From an uncultured Gammaproteobacteria bacterium (GTDB lineage: Bacteria > Patescibacteriota > Patescibacteriia > Magasanikbacterales > JBBTQS01), in the NCBI GenBank assembly GCA_965230935.1, contig OZ246400.1, positions 438,359-502,358 on the forward strand: a DNA stretch of 64,000 nucleotides, given 5' to 3'. Below, piece by piece: positions 4,375 through 50,682 of this stretch. The translations under genes and the position numbers were made by a program. The notes under the pieces are model-generated. The model saw only the letters and a program-made list of their open reading frames with translations. It ran no database searches and was not told the DNA's origin. The stretch's first letter is position 1; every line of letters starts with the position of its first letter.

Positions 4375-4376
4375 AG

Positions 4377-4805
4377 CTATTCATCAACTACTTCAATCGA
4401 GATTGCAGTCGTTGTTTTGGTCTTGGGAATGGTAATTGTGAGAATCCCGTCCTTCATCTTTGCCTTTGCTTTTTCTTTGTGCACCTCGACGGGCAAGATG
4501 ATACTTCGTGAAAATGCACCCCAATAACATTCTTGATAGAAATAATCTTCTGCGGAAAACTTTTGATCGCTATTGCGCGCACCACGGACAGTGAGCACAT
4601 CATGATCAATACTAATGTGAATATCTTCTACCCGTACTCCGGCAATAGCAGCAACGATCACCAAATCTTTTTTGGTCTGCGCCACATCAACCGCCAATTC
4701 GCCTTCTGGTCCAAAATAATCCCAACTAAAAGTATCTGGCGCCTGAGTTGACGCTGATTTTTTCGTACGCGCTTTTGCGCTTTTTCTCGTCAGAGCCTTT
4801 GGCAT
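4377..4805 (-). CDS. Hsp20/alpha-crystallin family small heat shock protein
   Basis: ELAVDVAQTKKDLVIVAAIAGVRVEDIHISIDHDVLTVRG ... DGILTITIPK typical ACD; start reassigned to MPKALTRK (ATG 4805..4803). Confidence 0.8.
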   Translation of the reverse strand: MPKALTRKSAKARTKKSASTQAPDTFSWDYFGPEGELAVDVAQTKKDLVIVAAIAGVRVEDIHISIDHDVLTVRGARNSDQKFSAEDYFYQECYWGAFSRSIILPVEVHKEKAKAKMKDGILTITIPKTKTTTAISIEVVDE

Positions 4806-8947: not shown

Positions 8948-11900
8948 TTACGCCGGCGCTACTTGAGCATCTTGCAAAATCTGTTGCACTTGTTGTTGCA
9001 CATTGTCATTCCAATCAATGTGCATATTTGATACCACTTTTTTACCCCCCATTTCAAAAATCACCTGGTGCTCTCCCGGATTATTTTCAAACAGTTGTTT
9101 TAATGCGTCGCGCGTGCTCATTGGCAACCCACGCGGAATTGCAATGATCGCCTGTTGCTGATCTGCTGTTTGCGCCCACGCCGGACGCACCCCTCTTCCT
9201 AACCCAAGCACCCCCTGGATCTCTCCTATTGTTTCATCAGAAAGCACATATCCCTTATCAACAAAAACCTTGTTATCTCCTGCCTCTTTCCCTTTGCGCC
9301 CAACCACAACCACCATTTGATCTTCTTGCCAAATATGTTCTTTGCCTTCATACGCACCTGGAAATACCAACAATTCTGTTGTGCCGGTCAAATCCTGCAC
9401 ATTGACAAAGGCCATGACTTTCCCTTTTTTGGTAATCTTCTTTTTAAGAAAACTCACAATACCACCAATCGTTACCCATCCTCCTGGTTCGACCTGCTCA
9501 ACAGTTTCACTAGGACTGGCAATCCCCTCAAGAACATCTGCATACTTTTTATACGGATGACCTGACAAATACAAACCAATTAACTCCTTTTCCCATGCAA
9601 GCCGTTCATCTTCAGTAGCAGCTGGTGAATCTTGCATCGGTACTTTGGTACCAATATCCATTCCTGCCGAAGCAAACAGACTGTCCTGATTACTCGCACT
9701 ACTCTGCTGGAGCTCTTTTGAAAATGAGATAATATTTTCAATGTTGTGAAGCAACTTTCCTCGATCGCCAAATTGCTCCATTGCACCTACGCGAATCAAT
9801 CCATCAAGTGATCGCTTGTTTAAATCTTTGTGTTGTACCCGTTCCAAAAAATCCTCAAGCGAGGCAAACTTGCCGCCTTCCTTCCGCTTGGCAATGATAA
9901 CATCACAAATATTTTCTCCAACATTTTTGATTGCTGCTAATCCAAATCGAATACGCATCGGTTCGCCATCCTTACCTGTTGATACCACGGTAAACTTTTT
10001 AAACGACTCGTTAATATCTGGTGGCAACACTTCAATACCAATTCGATTACACCCGGCAACAATGGCGGCGACTTTATCACTATCTCCACTTTCAGCAGTC
10101 AACACCGAACTCATGTAACACACCGGATAGTGTGCTTTCATGTACGCGGTTTGATATGCCACAATGGCATAACTTGCCGCATGAGCTTTGTTAAATCCAT
10201 ACAAGGCGAAGGGTTCCATGAGCTTCCAAATCTCTGCGATTTTGTCTCGGTCTAACTTACCAAACTCTTTGCACCCATCAAAGAATTTTATCTTTTGTTT
10301 TGCCATTTCTTCTGGAATTTTCTTTCCCATTGCTTTGCGAAGCTTATCTGCTTCAAGCCAGGAATACCCGGCCAGCTTCATAGCCGTAGACATGACATCA
10401 TCTTGATATACCATCACACCAAACGATTTATCCATAACATCTTCAAGGCGTGGTTCTGGATAGGTGACTGGCTTACGGTCATGTTTACGTTCAATATATT
10501 CTGGAATTGAATCCATAGGTCCCGGACGAAACAGTGCCACCATGGCCATGATGTCAAAAATGGTTGACGGCTGAAGCTCTTTAAGATATCGCGTCATTCC
10601 AGATCCAGAAAGTTGAAACACCCCCATGGTCTCCCCGCGCGCAAGCATTTCAAACGTCTTCTGATCATCAAGGGGTAAGGTAAAAATATCAATCTTCTCT
10701 CCATGGACTTGCTCAACCAATGCAACCGAGTTTCCTAAAATCGACAAGTTACGAATTCCCAAAAAATCCATTTTGACCAGTCCAGCATCTTCAACTGATT
10801 TCATCTCGTACTGCGTAGTGATCTTCTCTCCACCGGATTCTTTTTGCACGGGGGTATAGTCAGTGAGTGGGGTTGGTGAAATCACTACCCCGGCAGCATG
10901 CACTGAACAATGCCGCGCATTCCCTTCAATCTTTTGCGCGATGTCTAAAAGTTTTTGCACTTCTTCGTTGCTTTTGTAGAGCTTCTTCAAATCTGGGGCC
11001 TCATTAAGGGCTTTTTCAATAGTCATGGGCATCCCTTGAGCACCTTGCGGAATCACTTTTGCTACTTGATCACAAAACGTGTACGACATGCCAAGTGCAC
11101 GACCAGCATCACGCACTGATGCACGGGCAGCCATAGTTCCAAATGTTACAATCTGTGCCACATGATCTTTACCATATTTGTTGGTCACATATTCAATCAC
11201 TTCATCACGACGATCATCAGCAAAGTCAGTATCAATATCTGGCGCACTTGGCCGCTGGGGATTTAAAAATCGCTCAAAGGGAAGTTTGAAAAATAGCGGA
11301 TCCACTGTGGTGATGTTAAGTGCATACGAAACCAAAGAACCGGCTGCAGAGCCACGAGTAGTTTCAACGATGCCACGTTCTCGCGCCCATTGTACATAAT
11401 CAGCAACTGACAAAAAGTAGGTTGAATATCCTTTATCCTTGATGATTTTTAATTCGTAATCAATGCGCTCTTCAACTTCATCAGTCACTTCCATGAGATT
11501 AGGAATGCGTGCATAGGTTTGCTCGCGTAACATTTCATCTGCAGTTTTCCCTGGCTCAATATCGACCGGGGGGAAATGCCATACCCCAAGTGGGATCTCG
11601 ACATTGCACGCATCAACGATCTTTTGGGTGTTCTCTAATGCTTGAGGTAAATGTTCAAAGCGACTCTCGATTTCTTGCTCAGTGCATAATGAGCGATCAA
11701 CATGCACCATACTAAATCGATTGGAGTCGTTAATCTTACGCCCTGTCTTGATGCAGCTCACAATATCCTGTGCTTGTGCATCATCAGGATCAAGATAATG
11801 CACATCACGGGTGGCAACAATTGGCACATCAAGCTCAGCACCAAGTTCGGCCAACAGATTATTCATGCGCACCTGCCCATCAATTTCTGGATGATCTTGT

Positions 11901-16471: not shown

Positions 16472-17500
16472 TTAAAACTGCTTCAAAAACCGCAAATCTC
16501 CGCTCATCAAATGACGAATATCCTCAATACCATACCGCATCATTACCAAACGGGTGAGTCCAAATGCATAGGCAACTCCTTGCCACTTTGCCGGATCAAG
16601 ATCAGCAGCACGCATCACATTCGGATGAATAAGTCCGGCACCCATCATCTCAATCCACCCGCTATATTTACATACCGCACACCCCTTGGCAGCACAAACC
16701 AAACACGCCATATCAAGCTCGACGGATGGTTCGGTAAATGGGAAATAACTTGGTCGCAATCGTACGGTCACCTCTTTATTAAAAAGACGTTGCAACGTGT
16801 GTTTAATAATCCCCTTCAAGTGCCCCATTGAGATGTGCTTATCAACAATCAATGCTTCGTACTGGAAAAACGTATGTTCATGCGATGCATCTGTTGCCTC
16901 GTTTCGAAAGTTCTTTCCTGCATAGGCAACGCGCACTGGTGCACCATATTGCCGCATCAACCGCACCTGCATATTTGACGGGTGTGATCGCATCACCCAA
17001 TCGTGCTTCCCGTCAATATAAAACGTATCCTGCATGTCACGCGCCGGGTGCGACGGCGGGATGTTGAGCGCTTCAAAGTTGTAATAATCAGATTCCAGCT
17101 CTGGCCCATCAATCACGACAAATCCCATGAGCTGGGCAATTTCTTCCATGGTCTCTTGCACTAACGTGTTGGGGTGCTTATGTCCTTGTTGTGCGCCGGA
17201 CAGCACCGGCTCAGTCACATCAACCCACTCACTATCTTTAATATGATCCCACTTCTTACGCTCAAACTCACGCGTTTTGTAGTCAATTGCTTTTTCAATC
17301 GCATCCTTTACCGAATTAAAAGATTTACCATATGACTTTTTTTGTCCCTCGCTCATCTCCTTAAGCCCGGCACGCATTTGCGCAAGCTCACCTTTGCGAC
17401 CTAAAAATTGCACGCGTAGTTTTTCAAGCGCTTCAAGATTTGCCACATGCTCGATTGCCTTGTGGGATTCTTTTTTAATTTTTTCAAGTTCGCTTTTCAT
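16472..17500 (-). CDS. pheS: Phenylalanine--tRNA ligase alpha subunit
   Basis: class II core motifs (FRNE, FTEPSVE, GAGL); 342 aa. Confidence 0.9.
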   Translation of the reverse strand: MKSELEKIKKESHKAIEHVANLEALEKLRVQFLGRKGELAQMRAGLKEMSEGQKKSYGKSFNSVKDAIEKAIDYKTREFERKKWDHIKDSEWVDVTEPVLSGAQQGHKHPNTLVQETMEEIAQLMGFVVIDGPELESDYYNFEALNIPPSHPARDMQDTFYIDGKHDWVMRSHPSNMQVRLMRQYGAPVRVAYAGKNFRNEATDASHEHTFFQYEALIVDKHISMGHLKGIIKHTLQRLFNKEVTVRLRPSYFPFTEPSVELDMACLVCAAKGCAVCKYSGWIEMMGAGLIHPNVMRAADLDPAKWQGVAYAFGLTRLVMMRYGIEDIRHLMSGDLRFLKQF

Positions 17501-35671: not shown

Positions 35672-37744
35672 TCACTCCAAATGAATATTAACGTGGATAT
35701 TGCCAAAGTGTGTTGTACCCATGCGCCCTAAATCCCAGCCAGAAGCATGCATTTTTTGAGCAATCTCTTGAGTAAGTTCAAGTAATACCATATCTGAAAG
35801 CCGCGCAATGGTAAATTGCAAAAAACCACTTTGCGCCTTGCCATATACCTCCCCAGGACCACGCGTTGCTAAATCATGTTGAGCAAGCGCAAATCCATCC
35901 AAGGTTTGTTCAAAAAAACTCAATCGCTCAAGTGCGGCAGCCTGCGCAGCATCTGCATCTACAAAACAATACGATTGATGTTCTCCTCTGCCAACACGTC
36001 CGCGAAACTGATGGAGTTGCGCTAAACCAAACCGATGCGCGTCCTCAATAACCATTACGGTTGCATTTGGAATATCAACTCCCACTTCAATAACTGAGGT
36101 TGAAACTAACATGTCTGTTTCCCCAGAAGCAAACGTGTCCATGATTTGTTGCTTCTGATCACTTTTCATTTTCCCATGCAACATTACCACACGATACTGG
36201 GCAAATTCTTGCTGGAGCTTTTCAAATTCAGCAGTTACTGATTTTACCTCTAGTGAATCTGATTCATCAATCAGCGGACAAATCACAAATGCTTGTCGTC
36301 CGGTATTAAGTTGTTTGCGAATAAACTGATATGCTTTGGTACGATTCTTTTGGGTAAGTATGCGAGTAATAATTGGTTTGCGTCCAGCTGGCAATGTGCC
36401 AATAACTGACACTTCAAGATCACCGTACAGCAAAAGAGCAAAAGATCGTGGGATTGGCGTAGCAGTTAATGACAAAAAGTGAGGTGTTACGCCTAAACTT
36501 TTCTGCAGGAGTGCTTGCCGTTGATTCACCCCAAATCGATGCTGCTCATCAACAATGGTTAACGCCACCTCTGGCATCACGACGTCTGGTTGGAGCACGG
36601 CGTGGGTTCCGATCACAATATCGACTTTACCTTGTGCAATAGCTTTTTTTAGTGATGCCTTGGTACGTTTATGATCTGTTGTGCCGTCGTAGCAATATGC
36701 ATGCGCACTACTTAAGAAAGCGACGGAGACCGGAAATGAGGCAAACAATTTTTGAAACGAGACATAGTGTTGTCGTGCAAGCACTTCGGTTGGCGCCATT
36801 ACCATGACCCGCTTTTCATTGGTAATGGCATGCCAACTTGCCAGCGCTGCAACAACGGTTTTCCCAGAACCAACATCACCTTGGACCAGTCGCCGCATGG
36901 GAGCGGACTCCTGCATTTGCTGGATGATTTTCCAGGCTGTTTTTTTCTGATCCGCGGTAAGAGTAAAAGGAAGTGCATCAACAAATGCCTTAATCCTTGA
37001 CTCATCAAATGCAAGTGGAATGGCTTTTGCCGATTGATAGGTCTGTGCATTGATAATTGACGAAAAGAGAATGGGAAACAACTCTTCAAAACCAAGACGT
37101 CGCCGCGCCGCTTCAAGTTCTGATTGATCCTTTGGAAAATGAATCGTACGCAGCGCGTCTTGTAATGAGATAAGTTTGTGCTGAGTACGAATGTGCCCAG
37201 GCAACCAATCATCAATTTGGTCGATTGCTGATAATGATTGTGTTACTAAATATCGGAGGTGTTTAACAGTCACCCCAGCAGTGGTTGAATAAACCGGAAC
37301 CAGACGGCCAGTATGAGCACCTGTTTTTCCAGGCTGCATCTTTTCGTATTGGGGAGCGCTAAAGAGTAGACCGATAGAATCTTCTCTCACCTTTCCGGCA
37401 ACGGCAATCGCATCTCCTTGAGTAATACTGCGGCTTAAGTACGGCTGGTTAAACCAAAAGATTCGTATACTTCCGGTATCATCCTCAAGTAATGCCTCGG
37501 TGACACTCTTACGAGATCGCCAGCCGCGTCGATTTTGGATCATCATCACCTTACCAGTGACGGTCACCACTTGGTCCTGTTTCAGAGTATCGATCGAAAC
37601 CGTGTTTTGAAAATCATCGTAGCGATACGGTAAATAATAGATAAGGTCTTCAACCGTATGCAAACCCAAATATCCCAAGCGTTTGACCAAGGTTTTACCT
37701 ACAGTTTTAAGTTCTCCAACCGGAGTATCAAGACGAATACTCAT
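35672..37744 (-). CDS. recG: ATP-dependent DNA helicase RecG
   Basis: wedge/OB N-domain, GDVGSGKT Walker A, DEQH box, TATPIPR, QLHQFRGRVGRG; 690 aa. Confidence 0.9.
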   Translation of the reverse strand: MSIRLDTPVGELKTVGKTLVKRLGYLGLHTVEDLIYYLPYRYDDFQNTVSIDTLKQDQVVTVTGKVMMIQNRRGWRSRKSVTEALLEDDTGSIRIFWFNQPYLSRSITQGDAIAVAGKVREDSIGLLFSAPQYEKMQPGKTGAHTGRLVPVYSTTAGVTVKHLRYLVTQSLSAIDQIDDWLPGHIRTQHKLISLQDALRTIHFPKDQSELEAARRRLGFEELFPILFSSIINAQTYQSAKAIPLAFDESRIKAFVDALPFTLTADQKKTAWKIIQQMQESAPMRRLVQGDVGSGKTVVAALASWHAITNEKRVMVMAPTEVLARQHYVSFQKLFASFPVSVAFLSSAHAYCYDGTTDHKRTKASLKKAIAQGKVDIVIGTHAVLQPDVVMPEVALTIVDEQHRFGVNQRQALLQKSLGVTPHFLSLTATPIPRSFALLLYGDLEVSVIGTLPAGRKPIITRILTQKNRTKAYQFIRKQLNTGRQAFVICPLIDESDSLEVKSVTAEFEKLQQEFAQYRVVMLHGKMKSDQKQQIMDTFASGETDMLVSTSVIEVGVDIPNATVMVIEDAHRFGLAQLHQFRGRVGRGEHQSYCFVDADAAQAAALERLSFFEQTLDGFALAQHDLATRGPGEVYGKAQSGFLQFTIARLSDMVLLELTQEIAQKMHASGWDLGRMGTTHFGNIHVNIHLE

Positions 37745-37776: not shown

Positions 37777-37805
37777 ATTGACAAGAACGTGTCTGTCTCC
37801 TATAC
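37777..37805 (+). promoter_or_regulatory. Sigma70-like promoter TTGACA-17-TATACT driving tRNA-Arg
   Basis: TTGACA 37777..37782, TATACT 37800..37805, tRNA starts 37818. Confidence 0.45.
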
Positions 37806-37817
37806 TATTGCTGCATT

Positions 37818-37889
37818 GCTCTCGTCGTTCAACGGATAGGACGCCAGTTTGCGGAACTGGTAATGTAGGTTCGATTCCTGCCGAGAGCA
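37818..37889 (+). tRNA. tRNA-Arg (anticodon GCG by manual fold)
   Basis: acceptor GCTCTCG/CGAGAGC, anticodon stem CCAGT/ACTGG loop TTGCGGA, T-arm GTAGG-TTCGATT-CCTGC, discriminator A. Confidence 0.7.
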
Positions 37890-37896
37890 CATCATA

Positions 37897-38028
37897 AAAA
37901 TACTCATTAAGATACGTTCGTCCCGCCAGCGCGAGACTTCACTATGCATTCGGCAAATCGCTGCACTTCGTGCAGACCATGCCGATTTGTCTCATGAATA
38001 TCTTAATGAGTATTTTTTATTCCGTAAT
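37897..38028 (+). ncRNA. Structured RNA-like element: 19-bp perfect terminal inverted repeat (AAAAATACTCATTAAGATA / TATCTTAATGAGTATTTTT) enclosing nested stems including CTGCAC-UUCG-GUGCAG tetraloop hairpin, followed by U-run; function unknown (tRNA 3' trailer/terminator, sRNA, or MITE-like)
   Basis: inverted repeats 37897..37915 and 38008..38028; inner GGCAAATCG/CGATTTGTC and GAGAC/GTCTC pairings; UUCG loop only on + strand. Confidence 0.35.
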
Positions 38029-38043
38029 AAGCTCTTCGAGACG

Positions 38044-38553
38044 CTAAATACGTAGCCACTGGCCAAAACGATCTGAAAATGGCATTTTTTGCTCTTCTGG
38101 GTCGTGCTCAATATAAAACGCAAGTAACGCACGAACATCATCTATTCCCTCACGAGCCATTGGCACGGCAATACGAGGACGTACGACATTGGTAAAATCA
38201 ACATACACAATCGCATCCTCCGGATGCGTCACGATCCAAAATCGCTCAATGTTTTGAAATGGAAAAAAGGTATCCTCAAGAACCAACCCTTTATTACTAA
38301 CGCCAAAAAACACCTGACGTGGTTCTTTAACTTCATGAAACGCAACAATAATAGCAACAAAAATAGTTACCACCGCAAAAAAGTAATTTTGATCAGCAAG
38401 CGCATAAATCAACAACGCCAATACCAGCAATCCTGCACCAATATACCACCACCGATTACGATCATGTTTATGAAATTCAGGAATCTGCCATCCGGCCAAC
38501 ATGTCATCCTCTGCAACCCCTTTGGGGAGGATAATCTCTATTTGGTCTGCCAT
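38044..38553 (-). CDS. Hypothetical membrane protein (2 TM then soluble domain)
   Basis: start reassigned to MADQIEIILPKG (38553) because listed N-extension overlaps upstream gene; WWYIGAGLLVLALLIYALADQNYFFAVVTIFVAIIVAF TMs. Confidence 0.45.
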   Translation of the reverse strand: MADQIEIILPKGVAEDDMLAGWQIPEFHKHDRNRWWYIGAGLLVLALLIYALADQNYFFAVVTIFVAIIVAFHEVKEPRQVFFGVSNKGLVLEDTFFPFQNIERFWIVTHPEDAIVYVDFTNVVRPRIAVPMAREGIDDVRALLAFYIEHDPEEQKMPFSDRFGQWLRI

Positions 38554-40006: not shown

Positions 40007-40097
40007 CGGAGAGGGGGGGATTCGAACCCCCGATACGGCAAAATAACCGTATAACGGATTAGCAATCCGCCGCTTTCAACCGCTCAGCCACCTCTCC
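40007..40097 (-). tRNA. tRNA-Ser (anticodon GCT), long variable arm
   Basis: rc reads GGAGAGGTGGCTGAGCGGTTGAAAGCGGCGGATTGCTAATCCGTT...GGGGGTTCGAATCCCCCCCTCTCCG. Confidence 0.8.
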
Positions 40098-40180
40098 ATT
40101 GATTCTGCAGGAAGGTGGTGCGCTCGCCTCGCGCTTTCAGCGCTTGCTCACGGTCAGCCACCTCTCCATTGATTTCAAAA
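40098..40180 (-). repeat. Direct duplication of the tRNA-Ser(GCT) 5' end plus 9 nt of upstream flank (AATCAATGGAGAGGTGGCTGA), forming a tRNA-like long hairpin in the transcript leader
   Basis: 40085..40106 vs 40155..40176 near-identical; intervening sequence pairs GGAGAGGTGG with CCACCTTCC and has inner GCGC hairpins. Confidence 0.5.
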
Positions 40181-40189
40181 TGCGTGTGT

Positions 40190-40218
40190 AGTGTATGTGA
40201 TTTTATCCTTATTGTCAA
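40190..40218 (-). promoter_or_regulatory. Sigma70-like promoter TTGACA-17-TACACT for the tRNA-Ser cluster
   Basis: rc hexamers at 40218..40213 and 40195..40190. Confidence 0.4.
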
Positions 40219-40221
40219 CAA

Positions 40222-40845
40222 TTATCCACGCGCCAGCGCCACATACCAAATCTGCTTTGTCCCAGCCCCAACAAGGGCTTGGGCGCATGCCTGGATTGTA
40301 GCTCCGGTAGTGATGACATCATCCACAAGCACAACTTTTTCTGGAGCGATCCCTCGACACACAAACGCCTCATGCACATTACCCAACCGCGCGGATCGAG
40401 AAAGTTGCGCTTGAGCTTTTGTGTGTCGAGTCCGAAACAACACATCGGTCCTTACCTCCAATTGAGTTACCTCTCCCACTGCATGTGCTACAATTTCTGC
40501 TTGATTAAAATCACGCACCACATATCGTTTTGCATGCAATGGAACCGGCACTACCGCAGGACGCAAGGCATTAATCTCTTGCGTCACCACTTCTCCCAAT
40601 GCATGACCAAGTCGACGTGCAATAGATTCAATAAACCCGAACTTAATCTCATGAATCGCCCGGCGCACTATCGGGTGTGCATGTGTAGCATACGTCAACA
40701 TACGCGCATCAACTTGCACATCTCGCACCTGTACCACACACGCATTACAAATACCACTTCCCTCTTGGTTACACCCAACACAAAAAAGTGGAAAAAGTGA
40801 ATCCAAAACTATATTCTTGAATTGTGCGATGATTCCTAAGCGCAC
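40222..40845 (-). CDS. comF: ComF family protein (ComFC-type phosphoribosyltransferase, competence)
   Basis: N-terminal CxxC...CxxC zinc finger (CVGCNQEGSGICNAC), PRTase motif VLVDDVITTGAT; start overlaps upstream gene stop by 1 nt. Confidence 0.7.
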   Translation of the reverse strand: MRLGIIAQFKNIVLDSLFPLFCVGCNQEGSGICNACVVQVRDVQVDARMLTYATHAHPIVRRAIHEIKFGFIESIARRLGHALGEVVTQEINALRPAVVPVPLHAKRYVVRDFNQAEIVAHAVGEVTQLEVRTDVLFRTRHTKAQAQLSRSARLGNVHEAFVCRGIAPEKVVLVDDVITTGATIQACAQALVGAGTKQIWYVALARG

Positions 40846-41528
40846 TACAGTACCCCTTCTTCACCCCAATCAACACGATTCACCAACCAATCATCTCCTG
40901 ATTTAAGTACACTTACCTCGGCTCGTTGATATACCGTATCACTTTGTCCGAGCGCTGTTTTTTCTTTTTGGGTAGTAACCACAATCAGTGCTGATTCAGC
41001 ATCCAAGTCCAATACCTCTGATGAAAGTGGATTTACTTTAATCGAGAGCGTCTGATCACTTGGAGTCCCACCACTCGCCACAACACCTTTTGCCCAATTG
41101 CGCATATCAACCGTCATCAGTGGATACAAGGCTTTCAAATTTGTATAATTACTATCTGCAGAATAACTTCCCATACGCTCCACAAATGATTCAGCAAACT
41201 TTCCTAAGCTAATCTGCAACTCTTCATCAGTGCTCAAATCCACAGGATCACTGGACAACGTCGGTGTAGTATTATTTTCAGCAATCTCCTCAACTAGCTC
41301 TTCAGTAGTGACGTCAGATTCCAACGTTCGTACTCCAACCTCTGCTGCTTCTATATCAGTGCTGGTATCAAACGCTGATCGATCCGGTTGCTCTGGTGTA
41401 ACCGTGACATCAGTTTCCGGTGGCGCACTCTCAGGACTTGAACTACTCAGCACACGCCATAATTGCATCCCAACCAAAATCACGACGATAAGCACTATTA
41501 CCCCAATTGCTATTTTTTTTGTTTGCAT
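40845..41528 (-). CDS. TM-anchored extracytoplasmic protein in T4SS-like operon (VirB8/TcpC-like position; unassigned)
   Basis: N-terminal TM IAIGVIVLIVVILVGM, Ser/Thr/acidic linker, globular C-domain; 227 aa. Confidence 0.35.
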   Translation of the reverse strand: MQTKKIAIGVIVLIVVILVGMQLWRVLSSSSPESAPPETDVTVTPEQPDRSAFDTSTDIEAAEVGVRTLESDVTTEELVEEIAENNTTPTLSSDPVDLSTDEELQISLGKFAESFVERMGSYSADSNYTNLKALYPLMTVDMRNWAKGVVASGGTPSDQTLSIKVNPLSSEVLDLDAESALIVVTTQKEKTALGQSDTVYQRAEVSVLKSGDDWLVNRVDWGEEGVL

Positions 41529-41540
41529 ATGTTTTTGTGA

Positions 41541-43430
41541 TTAAACTTCTCCACCTTCACCTTCTTGCGCTGCTTGGAGCTCTTTACGCGCCTCTTCAAT
41601 CTCAATCAGCTGACGTGGGTCAGTAGTAATAATTTGATCTTCAGTATACGAAGCGACGATTTTAATAGCCGCATGACGCGAACCGGCAAAAAAGATTCCT
41701 TCACCAACACCGCCCTCGAGCAACAAATACTTCTCCCCTTCAGTGAGCAAAAACGTCTTTTGCACCAAATCAATTGATGCCGGAGATTGTCGCAATAGCA
41801 ACTGGAGCTGCGAGTTCGTCACAATGGCTTGACCGTAGACCGAAGTCAAAAAGTCGTTTACATCCTGGGTAATGGTAGTCACGCCCAAGAAATACTTTCG
41901 AGCGCGCTTGGCCAGCGCGAAGATGAACTTGGCTGAATCTTCGTGTTGCATCAACCACCACGCCTCATCAATCACGAGAATACGTCGCTTTACCTCTGAT
42001 CGTACCACATTCCAAATAAAGTTAATAATGTTGTACACCGCGATTGGACGCAGTTCATCTTCCAGATCACGAACACTAAAAATCATCAATCCGTTATTAA
42101 TATCAACGGTTGTCGGTGAGTTGAGCAACCCGGAAAACGTACCGGTGGTATATTTTTCAAGTTTCGTAATCAAACTATCACTCCCTTCCATACCACTTAA
42201 GATATCGGCCAAATCTTGCATAATAGGAGGTTCAACTGTAGCAATATCTGCATCAGGAGTAATATCCTTTTTGGCATAGGTCTCAAGCAAGGCACGATCC
42301 AGCATAGAATCTTCCTCAGGAGTCAGATTCCCTAACATAATCCGCATCATGCCCTTAACCGTAATCACGGCACTACGAATAATATCTTCCATGTCAATTT
42401 GCTGCCCAACCGGACGTGGCAAATCAAACGGGTTAACTTTAGACTCCGAAGCAAGTGAGATATTAATGTACGTTCCACCAACTGCTTCTGCCAAATGCTT
42501 ATACTCCATCTCCGGATCAATAATGATCACATCAGTCCCAAGCATCAAACTCCGCAAAACCTCAAGCTTAATCGCATAACTTTTTCCAGCACCTGAAGTC
42601 GCAAATACGACTGAGTTTGCATTTTGCAATGAGAACCGATCAAACAAAATCAGACTGTTATTATGGCGGTTAATCCCGTACAAAATTCCATTCTCTGAGG
42701 TTAGCTCAGCTGAGATAAACGGAAATGATGCAGCAATTGGTGAGCTGTTCATATTAAAGGTCACCATCAACTCATCATTACCAAGTGGCAACGTTGAGTT
42801 AAATCCTTGCTCTGCTTGATAAAATACGCGCTTGGAATAAATCAACTTAGCACCAAACACATTTTCAACATCTCCGGAAATACGATCTAACTCATCCTTG
42901 CTCTTTGCATAAATCGTAATGTACAGCGCGAATTGGAAAAATTTTTCAATCCCTTGGGTGAGGGCATCACGCAATTGCTCGATATCGCGCAAAGCAGTCT
43001 CACGAATCGGATCGCGGGGCGCGCCCTTCTCAGCATCGGAGAGAATCTGCGCTTCCATAACACCGGATTGATTTTTGAGCTGTTTTAATACCACGGCAGT
43101 TTTCACCGGATAAAAGAACATGGCAATATCCAGTGTGTTGGAAAAATTAATAATCGGCGCAAACCACCCAACGGTAATATAGCGTGGATATGCCACCACA
43201 AACATGGTACGCACAAACGTATCCCCCAAGAGCACGTGCGAGGGGTTGATTTTCATGGCTGCCGGCGCAATCAAATCACGGATGTTCACCACCCCGGTAC
43301 GAAAGACCTTTTCCTCGGCCAACGTCCCCAAAGCCTCACGAGTATCTTTTGCGCGTTTTGATTCTTGTTTTTGTGCCTTGGCTTTCAGCCCTTCGGTCGC
43401 TTGTTTTTGTGAAATTGGTTTAAAGGCCAT
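41541..43430 (-). CDS. virB4: VirB4/TrbE/PrgJ-family type IV secretion ATPase
   Basis: Walker A FATSGAGKSY, DPEMEY, Walker B ILVIDEAWWL, GVTTITQ; 629 aa. Confidence 0.8.
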   Translation of the reverse strand: MAFKPISQKQATEGLKAKAQKQESKRAKDTREALGTLAEEKVFRTGVVNIRDLIAPAAMKINPSHVLLGDTFVRTMFVVAYPRYITVGWFAPIINFSNTLDIAMFFYPVKTAVVLKQLKNQSGVMEAQILSDAEKGAPRDPIRETALRDIEQLRDALTQGIEKFFQFALYITIYAKSKDELDRISGDVENVFGAKLIYSKRVFYQAEQGFNSTLPLGNDELMVTFNMNSSPIAASFPFISAELTSENGILYGINRHNNSLILFDRFSLQNANSVVFATSGAGKSYAIKLEVLRSLMLGTDVIIIDPEMEYKHLAEAVGGTYINISLASESKVNPFDLPRPVGQQIDMEDIIRSAVITVKGMMRIMLGNLTPEEDSMLDRALLETYAKKDITPDADIATVEPPIMQDLADILSGMEGSDSLITKLEKYTTGTFSGLLNSPTTVDINNGLMIFSVRDLEDELRPIAVYNIINFIWNVVRSEVKRRILVIDEAWWLMQHEDSAKFIFALAKRARKYFLGVTTITQDVNDFLTSVYGQAIVTNSQLQLLLRQSPASIDLVQKTFLLTEGEKYLLLEGGVGEGIFFAGSRHAAIKIVASYTEDQIITTDPRQLIEIEEARKELQAAQEGEGGEV

Positions 43431-43432
43431 AC

Positions 43433-44131
43433 CTATTGTTGGTCAAGTCGAATCTTACTTACCTCACCCATCTTTTCACTCATAAATACATCAGGATTGT
43501 ACACATTGTAATACAGCTCGATCAGGCTTTGGGTATCGAGGCGCGCAGTCTCCAAACTCATCCCACCCAGACCAGAGATTACTTTGCGCAATCGCATGTC
43601 GAGCTCTTCTTTTCGCTTGCGAAACTTTTCACTGCGCAACTTAAGGGTGAACGCTGGTTTTGCCGCTTCTTTGAGTCGGGTAAAGTATCCTTTACGCTTG
43701 TTGGACAACGGATCATACGGCACCACCACAAAAAATCGTTTACTCATAATCTCACCAAGATCAACCAGCTCTTTTACAAACGATCGGTAATCAGCGATTT
43801 GCATCTTGAGTAATTCATTGGGCTGCTCTTTTTCGGCTTCTGATAAACGATTCATGTACCCTTCAATGTTGAGTTTTCGTGATTGAATCACAATCTGCAA
43901 CGGAAAATCCAAACTATTTAAAAATCCAACATACGAGCTGATCAGTGCATTTTGCTCATCTTCTGATTTGAGCGAAAAGTTAACACTGGAAACCAACAAC
44001 ACCGCGCGCAGTGTTCCGTCTTTGAGTACCACAACATCATCTTTGATCTCAGCAATATCCAAAAACTTCTGCGTAGTAGTTTTAATTGTCTTCTTGGCCA
44101 ATTTTTTTGACTGCATACTATTGCTGATCAT
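43433..44131 (-). CDS. Hypothetical protein in T4SS-like operon (232 aa, soluble, Lys-rich)
   Basis: no motif recognised; tightly packed between VirB3-like and VirB4. Confidence 0.45.
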   Translation of the reverse strand: MISNSMQSKKLAKKTIKTTTQKFLDIAEIKDDVVVLKDGTLRAVLLVSSVNFSLKSEDEQNALISSYVGFLNSLDFPLQIVIQSRKLNIEGYMNRLSEAEKEQPNELLKMQIADYRSFVKELVDLGEIMSKRFFVVVPYDPLSNKRKGYFTRLKEAAKPAFTLKLRSEKFRKRKEELDMRLRKVISGLGGMSLETARLDTQSLIELYYNVYNPDVFMSEKMGEVSKIRLDQQ

Positions 44132-44573
44132 CAGGGCGATACACCCCGCCAGTGTTTACCACAAGTGATAAATCGGAAAGTCGACTCTTGCTTGCAGGCT
44201 TTTTTTCTACGATCTGCGCTCGCTGCGCCTGCAACTCTGCTTCGCGCTTTTCTTTTTTTGTTGGCTTTGGTGGTTGTATTGTATCATCTTTACCCTTCAT
44301 CCACACGCGGATTCCCGGCTTACGCATGGTTTGAAAAAAATTCAGGATAAAATAGTGAAACCGCTGACCGCGCACTTTGACAAACGCCAGGACAATGGCA
44401 AAAAAAATCAACGGAATTCCAGTGGTTAAAAACAGTGCAAAGTCAAAGAGTTTAAAAAAAATAAACTCAAACATACCAGCTACCAATAAAATCATAAACT
44501 GGCGGCCGGTGATAGGCCCGATAATCTTTGCTTCCTCATCAATAAATTGTGGAATCACAAATCGATCAGCCAT
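44118..44573 (-). CDS. Small 2-TM hairpin membrane protein, VirB3/PrgI-like by size, topology and position immediately upstream of VirB4
   Basis: FMILLVAGMFEFIFFKLFDFALFLTTGIPLIFFAIVLAFV hydrophobic hairpin; 151 aa. Confidence 0.4.
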   Translation of the reverse strand: MADRFVIPQFIDEEAKIIGPITGRQFMILLVAGMFEFIFFKLFDFALFLTTGIPLIFFAIVLAFVKVRGQRFHYFILNFFQTMRKPGIRVWMKGKDDTIQPPKPTKKEKREAELQAQRAQIVEKKPASKSRLSDLSLVVNTGGVYRPDDQQ

Positions 44574-44574
44574 A

Positions 44575-46284
44575 CTACCAACTCTCTAATACTTGGTTAC
44601 CGGCAATAATTTGAAACAACTCGTCATCATCAAGTACTTGTTTGCGCGCTTTTACCTGCTCTTTAACAAACTCGCCAATGGATTTGCGCTCTTGCAATGC
44701 CTCTACAATCATTTTCTCGTACAACTGATACGGCTCACTGCGACGCCACGCATAAATCGCTTGAATTTTATCAGGATAGGATTCTTCACCAATACGTGCG
44801 ATGGCAGACAGAATTTTTTCCATGCGAATCTCAGGCTGCGGCGAGCTGCGACGAAAATCGACCAACCGCAATTGCTCGATCTCTTGCACCGGTCCGGTGA
44901 GTGCCTGGCCGGCTGGACGCACATCAGTCATAGTCGGCTCTGGAGCTTGCGGTGCTTTTACCGGCACATCAGCTACTGCAGATGGTGGTGCCGTTTTTCC
45001 AGACACTGCGGCAACTTTTGGCGCTTGTAACCCACCGGAGATTGCGGCATTACCCCCCGGAATCTCAAAGTGTGGTGCCGTGCGCAATGTATCCTCATGT
45101 GTAGCACCGATTTCATGTTCGGGATTGAGATCTGGTTTGCGCTGTTCTGATTTCTTTTGCGTTTTCTTAGCTCTTCCTACGACTTTGGTAAATGTTGTAT
45201 CAGCAGTAGCCTGAGCTGCTTCTTTCTTTTTGGGCGCTGCCTCTTTCTTCTTTTGTACTAGAGCATCTGCTGTTTTATACTTGGCCATTGCCTCTTCAAC
45301 AATCTCTACAATTGCCATGGCAAGCTCAGCGCTCAACGCGGCTCCTCCTTGATCAGCGGCGCGCATAAGTGTCTCACTCAGGGCACGCGTATCACGTGCA
45401 CCGCCAACACGAGAGCTGATCACTGATCGAAGTGATTCAGGATCTACATCACGAATCGTATGATTAATCTCTGTGAGTATTTCATCAAGTAATTGAGTGC
45501 GTTGTGGTTGATGTGCTCCGGCGCCTGCTCCAAGCGTTTTGCGCATCGCGCGCTTTGCTTTTTTTACATCATGCGCAATTGCTTTTTCATCCTCTGACTT
45601 GCCCTTACGTCGTCGGCGTACGGTGACATTCGAGACATCAACAAGACCATCGCGCTTTGCCACACGCATACTATTGGTACCAGCAAACGCTTGTTTAATA
45701 GCAAGAGCTGCACTGTGCGCATCATCTTCTGAAAGTTGCAGCTTCTCTTGCAGTGTTTGCATAACCTGCTGTTCATTAAACGACGAGCGGCCTGCTTTGA
45801 CCACTTGTTGCGCTAATTCAATAAACGCGGCCTTGGTTCGTGGATTTTTCACTGATGGCGGGCAAAGCGATGCAATCTGTGCGGTCATCTGTGTATCGGA
45901 AAACGCTGGGATACTAAAATGCTTTCCGGTTGAGTCATACGTTTTGGTTGCTGCCTTTGCATCCCACTTGGCAACCTCTTTGTGTACCGGCCCTAAGTAA
46001 TCCCGTGCCGGGAAAAATAACCGCATACCAATTTCAGCTGCCAGTGGTGTTGTTTGCGCCACTGACTTTCCAAGCGCTTTAGCTAAGGTGCTTGGAAATT
46101 GCTTCAGTGATGTCTTACCCAAAAACACTTCAAGAACCGTGAGCAGCATTGCCCGTTGTTGCTCTGTTTTATCTAGTCCATAATGCGCGAAGAGTGACTC
46201 ATTAACTTGAGTCACTTCTACGCTACGCAAATATGCTTGAACATTTTGCGGGAGCTGCTTAAGTGTAGCAAACACAATCGGCAT
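44575..46284 (-). CDS. Hypothetical 569-aa soluble protein in T4SS-like operon (Ala/Lys-rich, no P-loop)
   Basis: no TM, no Walker motif; sits between VirB6-like and VirB3-like genes. Confidence 0.45.
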   Translation of the reverse strand: MPIVFATLKQLPQNVQAYLRSVEVTQVNESLFAHYGLDKTEQQRAMLLTVLEVFLGKTSLKQFPSTLAKALGKSVAQTTPLAAEIGMRLFFPARDYLGPVHKEVAKWDAKAATKTYDSTGKHFSIPAFSDTQMTAQIASLCPPSVKNPRTKAAFIELAQQVVKAGRSSFNEQQVMQTLQEKLQLSEDDAHSAALAIKQAFAGTNSMRVAKRDGLVDVSNVTVRRRRKGKSEDEKAIAHDVKKAKRAMRKTLGAGAGAHQPQRTQLLDEILTEINHTIRDVDPESLRSVISSRVGGARDTRALSETLMRAADQGGAALSAELAMAIVEIVEEAMAKYKTADALVQKKKEAAPKKKEAAQATADTTFTKVVGRAKKTQKKSEQRKPDLNPEHEIGATHEDTLRTAPHFEIPGGNAAISGGLQAPKVAAVSGKTAPPSAVADVPVKAPQAPEPTMTDVRPAGQALTGPVQEIEQLRLVDFRRSSPQPEIRMEKILSAIARIGEESYPDKIQAIYAWRRSEPYQLYEKMIVEALQERKSIGEFVKEQVKARKQVLDDDELFQIIAGNQVLESW

Positions 46285-46301
46285 ATAGATAGGATGTACG
46301 A

Positions 46302-49154
46302 TTACTCATCAAACTGAGCAAAACTTCCAGCACTTGGCGGCTCTGATGCTTTGAACTCTGCAACCACTTCCGGCTTACTCTTTTCAATTGCGCTGAGCAC
46401 TTGTTGCATGCTTACTCCTGCTTGTCCGGCATTGCCTTTACCAATGGCCTTGACCATTGCCTTTTGCAACACCTTCAATGCTTTGACCGTTCCAACACTA
46501 TCGCTAAATCCTTGTTGTGCTGTAGGTGAGCTATTGATTGCAGACATGGCAGCATCTCCTTGTCCAGCAGCGATCAACTTACCAAGATTTTCGCCCACAC
46601 TTGCGGCATCTGGTTTTGCTCCACCGACCGCCTTTTCAAATACGTCTTGGAAATCTTTTGGATTGGTGACATGGACACTGAGTACGCCACTTTTCTCCTT
46701 GTCATCTTTCTCTTCACCCTCTTCTTTGCCACCTGATGCTGGTTTTTCAGTCTTCGGTGCCGCCTTTGGTTCGGCCTTTGGCGCACCTTTCACACCTGCT
46801 GCTTCAGTTGGTTCAGCTGCTTCTTCTGGTTTTTTCCCTGGTTTGCGACGTGATCCTACCCCACTTGTTGGACGTTTTGCTTTGCCAGTAGGTGGCGCCT
46901 CTTCAGCTGCACCCTCCTCTGGTGCAGCAGCAGCCGCATCAGCTGGTGGTGGAGTTGGTTTTGGTCGACGACGAGCTCCTGATCCTACACCACTGGTTGG
47001 TCGTTTTGCTTTGCCAGCTGGCGGCTCAGTAGGCTCAGGTGGTTCTGGACGATCATGTGAGCCGGCATCAACATCTTGGTCTTGGCCAGGACGTTGGGTT
47101 GGAGCACCACCGCCACCGGCAGCTCCTCCACCGCCTGCGGCGCCTCCTCCTGCACCACCTGCGCCAGCTGCACCACCACCGGCAGCTCCGCCTCCTCCTG
47201 CACCACCTGCACCGCCGCCAGGACCTGGTGCCGGACGACCAGCAGCACTGCCATGGAATCGGGTGTTCCATGCGTCTCTTTCTGCTCTTGAGTCATCACC
47301 TTTGTTTCGTTTCATGTACTCTTTCTCCATAGCAGCAAAGTCAACAACCTTATCGTATGTATCATCATTTACACCAGGAGCAAGTTGATTCTGATGTGCA
47401 GGAGTTGATCCAGCAGGGAACTTGCGACCTGCCTCTGTCAAAAGTTCGGTATCATCAAAGTCAGTGTAGTCTTTTTGCTTATCAGCAACCGCCCCACGAA
47501 TCTCTTTACGCGCACCATCAGTCGGATTAGTGGTTCCGCGCTCTTGTACTTGTCGCTTGTTGTATGCCTCTTTAACATCTGACTGTTTCTCATCACCACT
47601 CTTAAAGAAGAAACCTCCAACTGTACCGAAATCTTTTGCACCTTTGCGCGCAGAATAAATCTGAGACCCGTCTTTTAAGAATGGAATTTGTGCTTTTCCT
47701 GATGCCACATCTTTTGATGCAGACTTCAAAAAGTTAACCCCTTTATTAACCGTATTCCCAACAGTCTGCTGAGTAAGCTGTTTAGTATAGCCATATCCTT
47801 TATCCACTCCAGCACGCGCATATCCGGCAATCTTCGCGGCAACAGTAGCCGCAGCCCCGCTCATCCCACCGGCATATTTAATTCCTCCAATGAGCACAAC
47901 ACTACTCACAATAAAGGCAGCCATGTTATTCCAGGTCGAAATCTCAGTATTCGTAATACTTGGTGTGTCTTTAAATGCTTTCCCTTCTCCACCAAGTGCA
48001 TCAACGACCACTTTTACGGAATCAGAATTCATCAAATCAAAAGCAGCCTCATTTTGCTGAACCGAAGTTAAGGCAAGCCAGACAAAAAATACCAAGATTG
48101 GACCAACCGTAATTTGTTTCACCAAATGATCTACCCACTTACTAAAGTATTGTCTAGTTGCAGGAAGCACGGCAAACAAAAATGCCAAAGGAGATAGAAT
48201 AATCAAAATCCAAATGCCAACAATTCGAAAAACAATCACCAGCAACAAGGTAAGCGCGATCGTCAACGCAAAAGTAGAAATAATTAACGTCAAGCTCAAC
48301 CCAATCCAGTTTTGAATAAAGTCATAACTTACAAACGACGCTGCGATTTGGGTGCCAATTTCTGCAAGTGCGCTCCCTGTTGCTTCACCTTCGGCCTTTC
48401 CAACAGTGTCCTGAACGGCAATAGCCGCTTGATCGATCAATGGTTTAAGCTTGAGCCAAGAATCAATACGCAATAAGTTAACAAAGTTTCTTCCTGCACT
48501 GTCATATAAGGCACTGGAGAATGTCAACATGACCACTTGTGCAGCATCAAGAAGTAGTCCAATAATGGTTCTACTGAAGTTCACCAAAAAGATTGCCAGG
48601 ATCAATCGTGGAATCAATTGTTGATATTGATATGAAGCAATCCGAAAGACCGTTGCAAAAGCGATCACCAACAATACCACCACAAAAAACATGTTTGCTA
48701 CATCCCGGATTGTTGCCCAACCGCTATTAACAAACTCATTATCCAAAAAGTTATTGTACTGGATCATCAAGATAAACGTATTCCATGACCAAATCAGCAC
48801 CCCATTTACCAATTGACTAAACGATTGAATAATAATGTCAAAAAGCAAAAAGAACACATAGAGCATGAAACCTTCGCCAGCCAAACCAACAGCACCTGAC
48901 GCCAAACCACCGAGCAATGCTGCTCCGGTCGCCCCTAAAAACTTTCCAATCTTGGCAACTTTTACCCCTTCAGAATAGTCAGCAACATCACTGTTGAGCA
49001 CCACTGATGTATCTGTTGCGGTGTATGGCACATTGACTGCGGCTTGTGCCTGCGCCATGCCAAGCGAACCAAACAATGAAGACAAGGTAAATACAAAAAG
49101 ACACGCGCCCACAATCGCTTTTCTTAATGAAAGATGTCTATATATGCTTTGCAT
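46302..49154 (-). CDS. Polytopic membrane protein, VirB6/PrgH/TcpH-like by topology and operon position, with long Gly/Ala- and Pro-rich low-complexity region and charged C-terminal domain
   Basis: signal peptide + at least 6 TM in first 450 aa; PAPGPGGGAGGAGGGGAAGGG... stretch; 950 aa. Confidence 0.45.
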   Translation of the reverse strand: MQSIYRHLSLRKAIVGACLFVFTLSSLFGSLGMAQAQAAVNVPYTATDTSVVLNSDVADYSEGVKVAKIGKFLGATGAALLGGLASGAVGLAGEGFMLYVFFLLFDIIIQSFSQLVNGVLIWSWNTFILMIQYNNFLDNEFVNSGWATIRDVANMFFVVVLLVIAFATVFRIASYQYQQLIPRLILAIFLVNFSRTIIGLLLDAAQVVMLTFSSALYDSAGRNFVNLLRIDSWLKLKPLIDQAAIAVQDTVGKAEGEATGSALAEIGTQIAASFVSYDFIQNWIGLSLTLIISTFALTIALTLLLVIVFRIVGIWILIILSPLAFLFAVLPATRQYFSKWVDHLVKQITVGPILVFFVWLALTSVQQNEAAFDLMNSDSVKVVVDALGGEGKAFKDTPSITNTEISTWNNMAAFIVSSVVLIGGIKYAGGMSGAAATVAAKIAGYARAGVDKGYGYTKQLTQQTVGNTVNKGVNFLKSASKDVASGKAQIPFLKDGSQIYSARKGAKDFGTVGGFFFKSGDEKQSDVKEAYNKRQVQERGTTNPTDGARKEIRGAVADKQKDYTDFDDTELLTEAGRKFPAGSTPAHQNQLAPGVNDDTYDKVVDFAAMEKEYMKRNKGDDSRAERDAWNTRFHGSAAGRPAPGPGGGAGGAGGGGAAGGGAAGAGGAGGGAAGGGGAAGGGGAPTQRPGQDQDVDAGSHDRPEPPEPTEPPAGKAKRPTSGVGSGARRRPKPTPPPADAAAAAPEEGAAEEAPPTGKAKRPTSGVGSRRKPGKKPEEAAEPTEAAGVKGAPKAEPKAAPKTEKPASGGKEEGEEKDDKEKSGVLSVHVTNPKDFQDVFEKAVGGAKPDAASVGENLGKLIAAGQGDAAMSAINSSPTAQQGFSDSVGTVKALKVLQKAMVKAIGKGNAGQAGVSMQQVLSAIEKSKPEVVAEFKASEPPSAGSFAQFDE
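47040..47260. repeat. GC-rich low-complexity tandem-like repeats (GGn/GCn codons) encoding Gly/Ala/Pro tract inside VirB6-like gene
   Basis: ccaccgcc / gcaccacc / ggagc iterations; generates long spurious antisense ORF 46351..47388. Confidence 0.5.
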
Positions 49155-50226: not shown

Positions 50227-50682
50227 CTTATCCTCCCTCTGTGTGTGGTGTGTAGTGAATCTTCTTCGCCGATCTGCATTGTTTAAAGAGCTGCTTCTGC
50301 AGCAAACAATGAAGTTTGTCGCTTCTGCAACCGTATATCATATCATAATTTGGTGTTTTTGTCAATATTAATTTAGCTAAAATAAGATAAAATCCTAAAA
50401 TAAGTCACAAACTATGCACAGAAAAGCCTTTGTTTGCTGGGTTTTCTATTGACAGAGGGGTACTGTTTTGCTACTGTAAAAGTGACTAAATGTGTCAAAT
50501 AGTTCTTTGTAAAAAGTTGCAAAATCGCACCGGAATGAGGAGTGCAAGCTCATCACTCTAGCGCGATTTTGCAACCAAGAGGGAAAGCCAACCACTTGTA
50601 GTCGTTCTGCTGGAGGTCCCGGGTGGGGCCTGCGACAGGAGTTGCGCCAGGCCACACTCAGACCTATCGGGGGAAAGAAACG

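Follow-up and report, generated by a model that had tools for sequence, protein, structure and literature searches.

What is the folded sequence that separates a tRNA-Arg gene from the convergent gene beyond it in a genome of the Patescibacteria? The sequence lies in the 64,000-nucleotide stretch of contig OZ246400.1 analysed here (hereafter the window, with positions counted from its first letter), where a perfect 19-bp inverted repeat, AAAAATACTCATTAAGATA / TATCTTAATGAGTATTTTT (37896-37914 / 37999-38017), begins 5 nt past the end of tRNA-Arg(GCG), its arms 84 nt apart. We favour, with moderate confidence, the reading that this element (37896-38017) belongs, as one of its copies, to a family of nested palindromes, not catalogued before, of the candidate phyla radiation (CPR)/Patescibacteria, a structured intergenic repeat akin to repetitive extragenic palindromic (REP) sequences, enterobacterial repetitive intergenic consensus (ERIC) elements and miniature inverted-repeat transposable elements (MITEs), and that here it forms the co-transcribed 3' trailer of tRNA-Arg.

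The 19-bp pair is the only one of its kind in the 64 kb, and its chance expectation there is 0.01 even when 3 mismatches are allowed. A first-pass annotation, made from the letters of the window, had reported the repeat correctly and had come close in placing about 90 nt between its arms and the whole directly after the tRNA, the measured values being those given above. It had also described further stems inside the outer one. A 135-nt region is much more stable than its shuffles when folded as either strand: the + strand reaches -47.2 kcal/mol (z = -7.2 against shuffles) and the - strand does slightly better, at -53.7 kcal/mol (z = -7.35). On the + strand the outer stem has A5 before it and U6 after it (38013-38018), and on the - strand it is followed by U5; a stem and a U-run are thus present on both strands, and not, as first described, on the + strand only.

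A family of nested palindromes

The element has relatives elsewhere (loci are designated here by L numbers), and in all we count 12 homologous instances across 8 CPR/Patescibacteria genomes or contigs, 4 of which hold 2 copies each. A metagenome scan with the pattern CGTC-NNN-CCAGCG-NN-AGAC...ACCATGC returned 38 loci, among them 6 distinct AT-rich loci with the same architecture (L014, L015, L025, L027=L050, L033=L044 and L045=L047), each of which has its own long outer inverted repeat. Most of the 38 matches were discarded as chance occurrences in GC-rich coding sequence, where one protein gene recurs often. A first covariance model, built from 8 seed sequences, recovers its seeds at 73-103 bits, and covariance models yielded 4 copies beyond those selected by the pattern: L015:1242-1355, which scores 88 bits with the first model; L033:7316-7430 and L027:4092-4212, whose bulges are the variants ACCAAGC and ACCGTGC; and L063:8692-8803, which scores 57 bits with the second model and belongs to the window's own genome, where it lies between groEL and prfA, ~132-243 nt past the right end of the window.

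The members share one plan (paired segments are denoted P and junctions J). An outer stem of 16-30 bp, P0, often perfect, closes a three-way junction, the whole unit spanning ~110-150 nt, and the sequence of P0 differs at every locus except in the near-identical L015 pair. J0/1, which ends ...YC, leads into the P1 hairpin, GUCnnnC-CAGC-GnnnGAC; J1/2, of 11-17 nt, leads into P2, of 7-10 bp, and the P3 hairpin is stacked directly on the 5' strand of P2. On the 3' side stands a bulge of 7 nt, ACC(A/G)(U/A)GC, before J2/0 and the other strand of P0. The parts of the window copy are as follows.

37891-37895, + strand: spacer ATCAT, 5 nt, from the tRNA to the outer stem; the spacer in L009 is equally long (CGATG)
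37896-37914, + strand: 5' arm of P0, AAAAATACTCATTAAGATA; an outer stem is found in all 12 family members
37915-37919, + strand: junction J0/1, CGTTC (family consensus ...YC before P1)
37920-37937, + strand: P1 hairpin GTCCCGC-CAGC-GCGAGAC, 7 pairs including one C.A mismatch, with the invariant C-CAGC-G loop; the middle pairs covary
37938-37951, + strand: junction J1/2, TTCACTATGCATTC; its GCTAT/CTATGCA motif is common to the same-genome paralogue and L009
37952-37960, + strand: 5' strand of P2, GGCAAATCG; in this helix (helix 3) both sides have changed at all 9 pairs
37961-37975, + strand: P3 hairpin CTGCAC-TTC-GTGCAG, with a UUC triloop; in this helix (helix 4) both sides have changed at all 5 pairs
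37976-37982, + strand: bulge of 7 nt, ACCATGC, 3' of P3; the family form is ACC(A/G)(T/A)GC
37983-37991, + strand: 3' strand of P2, CGATTTGTC, pairing with GGCAAATCG with one G-U
37992-37998, + strand: junction J2/0, TCATGAA
37999-38017, + strand: 3' arm of P0, TATCTTAATGAGTATTTTT, which with T38018 gives the run of six T at 38013-38018

Two of the inner stems first proposed, GGCAAATCG/CGATTTGTC with its single G-U and CTGCAC/GTGCAG, are supported by the comparative data. The UUCG tetraloop placed on the latter is in fact the UUC triloop listed above, one G having been counted twice, and the proposed GAGAC/GTCTC stem falls away, since GAGAC lies in the 3' strand of P1, which covaries in homologues.

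On a plain MAFFT alignment RNAalifold finds 29 pairs, with compensatory changes in 22. In the model-fitted alignment of the 12 sequences pairing holds in 90.5% of cells; shuffles give 61.2 +/- 1.8% and slid partners 35-44%. Both sides have changed in 26 of the 29 pairs, and no observed measure is reached by any of 500 shuffles. Fitting an alignment to the model favours structure, a bias from which the MAFFT result and the folds of single sequences are free. Folded singly, every copy forms the outer stem and P1, and all except the window copy form the P2/P3 arm with its bulge; the minimum-energy fold of the window copy takes an alternative P2 pairing instead. At least 11 of the 12 copies carry the motifs GTC..CCAGCG..GAC and ACC.TGC unchanged.

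Copies that share a genome vary in their resemblance. The L063 copy has CGYTYGTCC.GCCAGCG and GCTATGCA in common with the window copy and carries the bulge ACCGTGC; its P2 and P3 differ, and its outer stem, AAAATGCACCTGCAGACA/TGTCTGCGGGTGCATTTT, which includes one G-U pair, is unlike that of the window. An extra perfect 11-bp stem, GTCATTTCTTT/AAAGAAATGAC, stands outside it (L063:8667-8677 / 8815-8825). L033 and L027 hold two diverged copies each. Those of L027 (= L050), at 4078-4226 (+) and 4250-4397 (-), are inverted and 50 nt apart in an 800-nt intergenic spacer, an arrangement reminiscent of REP dimers or of clusters of bacterial interspersed mosaic elements (BIMEs). L015 has two 97%-identical copies in direct orientation, outer stem included (L015:1228-1369 and 2694-2835 = L051:8340-8453, 9806-9919), which bracket a single Wzx/MurJ-type flippase gene in a polysaccharide-synthesis locus; the boundaries of this pair are sharp, and both copies end TAAAAAA. 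As L033 comes from Candidatus Harrisonbacteria, the range of the family takes in distant lineages of the CPR.

Copy density is low, at one or two per 20-85 kb of the stretches examined and 2 in ~84 kb of the source genome. No further copy was found inside positions 1-64000 by exact and mismatch patterns, an inverted-repeat scan or two covariance models run with filters off, nor was one found in the 10 kb left of the window. A pattern scan of viral contigs gave a single match, a chance one in GC-rich coding sequence, and blastn against phages and plasmids found no similarity.

In most cases a copy is no further than about 35 nt from the 3' end of a gene, be it tRNA-Arg, groEL, rplL, rny (antisense), tgt, the flippase gene or an unnamed open reading frame (ORF). 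Other contexts are a gap between divergent genes, a position 318 nt past a KH-domain gene and the 800-nt spacer that holds the inverted pair. By our own count 9 copies are sense to their flanking genes and 3 antisense, and a tRNA precedes only 2 of the 12. No sigma-70-type promoter belonging to an element was seen among the copies, the only such promoters nearby being those of two tRNAs.

The tRNA-Arg site here and in relatives

The neighbours of the element in the window are the following.

35672-37744, - strand: recG, divergent from tRNA-Arg
37778-37806, + strand: sigma-70-type promoter TTGACA-17-TATACT, with 11/12 consensus matches, directly upstream of tRNA-Arg
37818-37890, + strand: tRNA-Arg, anticodon GCG, CCA not encoded (ARAGORN; Rfam tRNA 59.9 bits, 37818-37889)
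38044-38553, - strand: membrane-protein gene, 169 aa (longest ORF to 38694), convergent, with its stop codon 26 nt from the element

The promoter drives tRNA-Arg and, we infer, the element as well; equivalent promoters stand ahead of tRNA-Arg in L009, L006 and L058. The membrane-protein gene is 41% identical to its L006 orthologue. The recG-adjacent tRNA-Arg has a GCG anticodon and no encoded CCA in all the RecG-syntenic CPR relatives examined (L004, L006, L009, L058 and L060). The usual anticodon of the bacterial tRNA-Arg in question is ACG, not GCG.

The nearest relatives of the RecG of the window are annotated as Parcubacteria, Magasanikbacteria or Falkowbacteria. For comparison we took loci whose RecG is closest to it, at only 50-58% identity. 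In L009 (RecG 57% identical) a homologous element occupies the same position, 5 nt past tRNA-Arg(GCG). Its outer stem is a perfect 18 bp, TCTATTTAGGCTACCTGT/ACAGGTAGCCTAAATAGA, unrelated in sequence to that of the window, and its interior has in common with the window CGYTCGTC...CCAGCG...AGAC, GCTAT, the apical hairpin, ACCATGC and CTCA..AAT; the element folds with z = -11.4. Downstream of it, L009:2243-2557 is unusually GC-rich, and ORFs on its two strands overlap (+, 104 aa; -, 80 aa), neither of which has a Pfam match.

The gene order around the site is kept in relatives with and without the element. In L006/L007 the stop codon of the convergent gene is 2 nt from tRNA-Arg, with no element between them, and in L004 the tRNA is inverted and has no element. 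An element after tRNA-Arg is likewise absent from the more distant RecG-syntenic relatives, of which L060 also has an inverted tRNA and L058/L059 have a small unrelated hairpin 3' of the tRNA. RecG identities group P0002 with P0003 (63.6%) and place the window, L009 and that pair at about equal distances from one another (56-58%). One old gain followed by loss and two independent gains at the same site both fit this pattern. The window and L009 copies share subfamily motifs, which favours common descent.

Comparison with known repeats and RNAs

The first-pass annotation had proposed a covariance search, and this gave no match: no Rfam 15 family falls on the element at E <= 10, whether the query is a 2-kb region, the isolated element or the whole window, and on 7 homologous loci (E <= 5-10) only tRNA models match nearby. 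We found no description of CPR non-coding elements of this kind in Rfam or in full-text literature searches, the broadest of which returned only general papers on REPs and MITEs. Set beside the classes treated in those papers, the family is closest in kind to ERIC/REP/MITE-like repeats, yet it satisfies none of their definitions.

ERIC (~127 bp, Enterobacteriaceae) and Correia elements (104-157 bp, Neisseria) are similar in size to the element and form one long hairpin, and like the element they are intergenic, often just 3' of genes, found in either orientation and conserved across species; they are also co-transcribed, as the element would be (PMC3184786). They have conserved terminal inverted repeats and TA target duplications, whereas the outer stem of the element is different at almost every locus and no duplication is seen; the element also differs from them in its low copy number and in that conservation falls on an asymmetric three-way-junction core and not on the ends. 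REPs and MITEs, according to PMC3733652 and PMC3184786, are found for the most part downstream of coding regions and are co-transcribed; they can be contained in longer palindromes and can alter mRNA stability. For REPs in particular, Di Nocera et al. (2013, PMC3733652) describe palindromes that mostly follow coding regions, with the neighbouring genes unidirectional or convergent, which plausibly act as RNA hairpins and some of which occur as dimers inside long host palindromes, and in each of these respects the element is similar. In the same account (PMC3733652) REPs, those of the CGTC type included, are described as units of 20-40 bp with an unpaired GTAG/CGTC head, a stem of 8-9 bp starting with A/T pairs, a loop of 4-5 nt and a CCA tail. 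The element recalls these, because its P1 is preceded by C and begins GTC, thus reading CGTC, and because CCA occurs 3' of P3. Nevertheless, we rejected a CGTC-tagged REP: P1 has a 7-bp stem in which GTC is paired, no tail follows P1 on its 3' side, and the unit is 110-150 nt long. The element further differs from REPs in that P1 starts with G-C, in having two unlike hairpins per unit and in its far lower copy number.

As for MITEs, the family does consist of multiple dispersed non-coding copies that fold into long hairpins, at low density. A MITE by definition was rejected, as the outer repeats differ within the pairs of the window genome, L033 and L027, and only the L015 pair shares its ends. 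Rickettsia palindromic elements (RPEs) are palindromic repeats of 100-150 bp in the reduced genome of a host-dependent bacterium. Two of them, RPE-4 and RPE-6, are mentioned in PMC3733652. RPEs often insert in frame into genes, whereas no copy of the element was seen inside a gene, and no sequence relationship was found.

Two classes of RNA offer partial likenesses. 3'ETS-leuZ of Escherichia coli is a small RNA derived from a tRNA 3' external transcribed spacer (3'ETS), and the element at the tRNA-Arg locus would likewise be a tRNA 3' trailer freed by tRNA processing. Unlike such small RNAs, the family comes after a tRNA in only 2 of its 12 copies, and neither a base-pairing seed nor a target is evident. 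On the opposite strand the P2/P3 arm recalls the antiterminator of a T-box, being a helix with a 7-nt bulge on its 5' side, GCAUGGU, in which UGGU is complementary to the tRNA 3' end ACCA. The resemblance is one of topology only: UGGN stands at the 3' and not the 5' end of the bulge, one copy reads CGGU, and there is no Stem I or specifier, no competing terminator and no position upstream of aminoacyl-tRNA synthetase or amino-acid genes. The Rfam search gave no T-box match.

Other candidates were set aside. A Rho-independent terminator does not describe a 19-bp stem with only 4 G/C and an 84-nt 'loop', and a terminator scan does not call the element, although a U-tract does stand 3' of the stem on each strand of the window copy; most family members are without one. 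6S RNA and other single-copy housekeeping RNAs were rejected because the copies have no promoters of their own, number several per genome and have no Rfam match. Signal recognition particle RNA and 5S rRNA likewise have no model match to the element and are at odds with several copies per genome and no promoter; the likeness of CCAUGCCGA to 5S rRNA is absent from the other copies. Inspection revealed no core motifs of the hammerhead, the twister or other self-cleaving ribozymes, nor is there an Rfam match to any. Finally, a small ORF starting from the AUG of the bulge was discarded, as the window and L009 peptides are not conserved.

What the fold may be kept for

If the element is a member of a structured intergenic repeat family co-transcribed here with tRNA-Arg, as we favour, then the tRNA-Arg promoter would transcribe tRNA and element as a single RNA. 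The tRNA gene encodes no CCA, and its 3' processing must therefore cut after the discriminator base; this processing may set the element free as a 3' trailer that is stable and highly structured. The 19-bp duplex between its A5 and U6 flanks could cap the transcript, could separate transcription of the tRNA from the convergent membrane-protein gene and could, in both directions, block 3' exonucleases and hinder read-through. The loop and the bulge, both invariant, would presumably serve as a docking site, either for a host RNA- or DNA-binding protein or for an enzyme that copies the element.

Several points weigh against this reading. The co-transcription, the processing and the barrier role are inferred from sequence. 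Termination is not the general role of the family, given that the outer stem is AT-rich and most members have no U-run, nor is the element the ordinary terminator type of its source organism, whose tRNA-Ser terminator is canonical, a GC stem of 5 bp with a T-run after it. There are hardly any G-U pairs (5 G-U against 11 A-C in 319 cells), and all 11 copies tested have a lower RNA folding energy when read on the opposite strand, such that either strand, as RNA or DNA, remains a candidate actor. The invariance of the motifs is in part a matter of ascertainment, because the 8 seeds were found with a pattern that requires the conserved motifs; the independent test of invariance consists of the 4 model-found copies only. 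The evidence for mobility is thin, with no target-site duplications and no associated transposase seen in the loci examined. We also note that copies within one genome may be old, at ~60% identity, and yet structurally intact, which is not what would be expected of a decaying selfish element.

The main rival, which we regard as possible but doubtful, is that the family is purely selfish, non-autonomous mobile DNA of a MITE- or REP-like kind, whose hairpins serve a transposase or recombinase, encoded elsewhere in the genome, as single-stranded-DNA or cruciform substrate, the fold being conserved for mobilisation and not for the host. The almost purely Watson-Crick stems, the folding of both strands and the occurrence of copies in both orientations speak for it; one young duplicate is present in the L015 pair, with its 97% identity and sharp boundaries; presence at the orthologous tRNA-Arg site varies among relatives; and the copies adjoin gene ends, as REPs and MITEs do (PMC3733652, PMC3184786). 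The first-pass annotation had listed a MITE-like element among its candidates and had taken dispersed copies as proof of one in place of a non-coding RNA. Dispersed copies do exist, and of the candidates it named this is the nearest. Nevertheless, no target-site duplication is visible in the flanks of the L015 pair, the window copy or the L009 copy, and the outer repeats are unlike between paralogues of one genome, whereas ends bound by a transposase are normally conserved. The copy number is low (2 in ~84 kb), old diverged copies still have perfect stems, no transposase is found near any copy in the loci examined, and the subfamily motif that the window and L009 copies have at the same site fits very long vertical inheritance.

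It is unlikely, in our view, that the family is a true structured non-coding RNA with one to few genes per genome, represented here by a small RNA co-transcribed with tRNA-Arg, in which the CAGC loop and the ACCAUGC bulge have a specific ligand, be it a protein, an RNA or a small molecule. In its favour, all the helices covary around an invariant loop and bulge, two lineages with RecG only 57% identical have both kept the element at tRNA-Arg, the upstream gene runs in the same sense as the element in 9 of 12 copies, and a strong promoter with a CCA-less tRNA would provide a route to make and release the RNA. A tRNA-cotranscribed small RNA had in fact been among the original suggestions, and it may hold for the window copy, in view of this promoter and tRNA and of the same placement in L009. 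As a general description it fails, since only two copies follow a tRNA, none has a dedicated promoter and 3 of 12 are antisense to their transcription units. Moreover, the presumed sense strand shows no excess of G-U, the two L015 copies flanking one gene resemble repeats more than genes, and the downstream contexts are inconsistent.

Rather improbable, by our estimate, is a further proposal, that the family constitutes a class of structured RNA (or single-stranded-DNA) modules specific to CPR, in which the CAGC loop and the ACC(A/G)(U/A)GC bulge dock a dedicated partner. For example, the strand shown here might mimic the ACCA 3' end of tRNA and engage the tRNA 3'-end machinery, or the UGGU bulge of the opposite strand might capture tRNA 3' ends in the manner of a T-box antiterminator. 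Were such a module real, an undescribed regulatory or processing system would stand behind highly expressed genes (tRNA-Arg, groEL and rplL).

We consider it very unlikely that the element is simply a bidirectional intrinsic terminator of unusual length, serving tRNA-Arg and the convergent membrane-protein gene. It does sit in the convergent gap, which holds no other terminator-like site, and A5 and U6 provide a stem with U's on both strands. However, the 84-nt interior, a conserved three-way junction, covaries in unrelated contexts, and the first-pass judgement that the element is too elaborate for a plain tRNA terminator holds good; U-runs are missing in other family members, the stem has 4 G/C in 19 and is unlike the canonical terminator of the genome, and the orthologous site in L006 has neither a spacer nor a hairpin.

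A hairpin for site-specific recombination (att- or attC-like), marking a tRNA 3' integration site or a cassette boundary, can in all probability be dismissed, for despite the adjacent tRNA 3' end, the two direct L015 copies that bracket a flippase gene and a structure more conserved than its sequence, as in attC sites, the tRNA 3' 22-mer is unique in the window even at 3 mismatches, no integrase lies within +/-10 kb, the flanking gene order is the same in relatives with and without the element, and inspection finds no RYYYAAC/GTTRRRY cores at the stem ends.

CPR/Patescibacteria make up a large and mostly uncultured share of bacterial diversity, and their tiny genomes should tolerate little junk DNA. 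It is unusual to find an identical loop, bulge and three-way-junction fold across lineages whose RecG is ~50-57% identical, an outer stem whose sequence has wholly turned over with its pairing still perfect, and old paralogues in a single genome with the structure still intact. Should the fold be kept for the host, CPR gene expression would have in this family a new element for 3' ends or processing; should it be kept for mobility, reduced genomes would harbour in it mobile DNA of a new kind, defined by its structure. The covariance model of the family can be applied to all CPR genomes, which makes the question of host function or mobility directly testable.

Four other features of the window may be recorded. 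An inverted repeat at 50516-50575, with 27-nt arms that are 81% complementary and a 6-nt gap, and a 23-nt overlapping palindrome at 16776-16809, TTATTAAAAAGACGTTGCAACGT, are both unrelated to the element. A 21-nt direct repeat on the - strand (~40084-40104 / 40154-40174) comprises the 14 nt that begin tRNA-Ser(GCU) and the 7 nt before them (AATCAATGGAGAGGTGGCTGA), with its second unit 70 nt further upstream; it could be the remnant of a duplication or an integration. Lastly, ~40200-48000 (L001 1-7500) holds a type-IV-secretion-like cluster (PrgI, TraC-like and TraG/VirB4-type ATPase), then a phosphoribosyltransferase gene and two tRNA-Ser genes, and the same order, from the cluster through the tRNA-Ser genes, is found beside recG in L004, L006 and L060.

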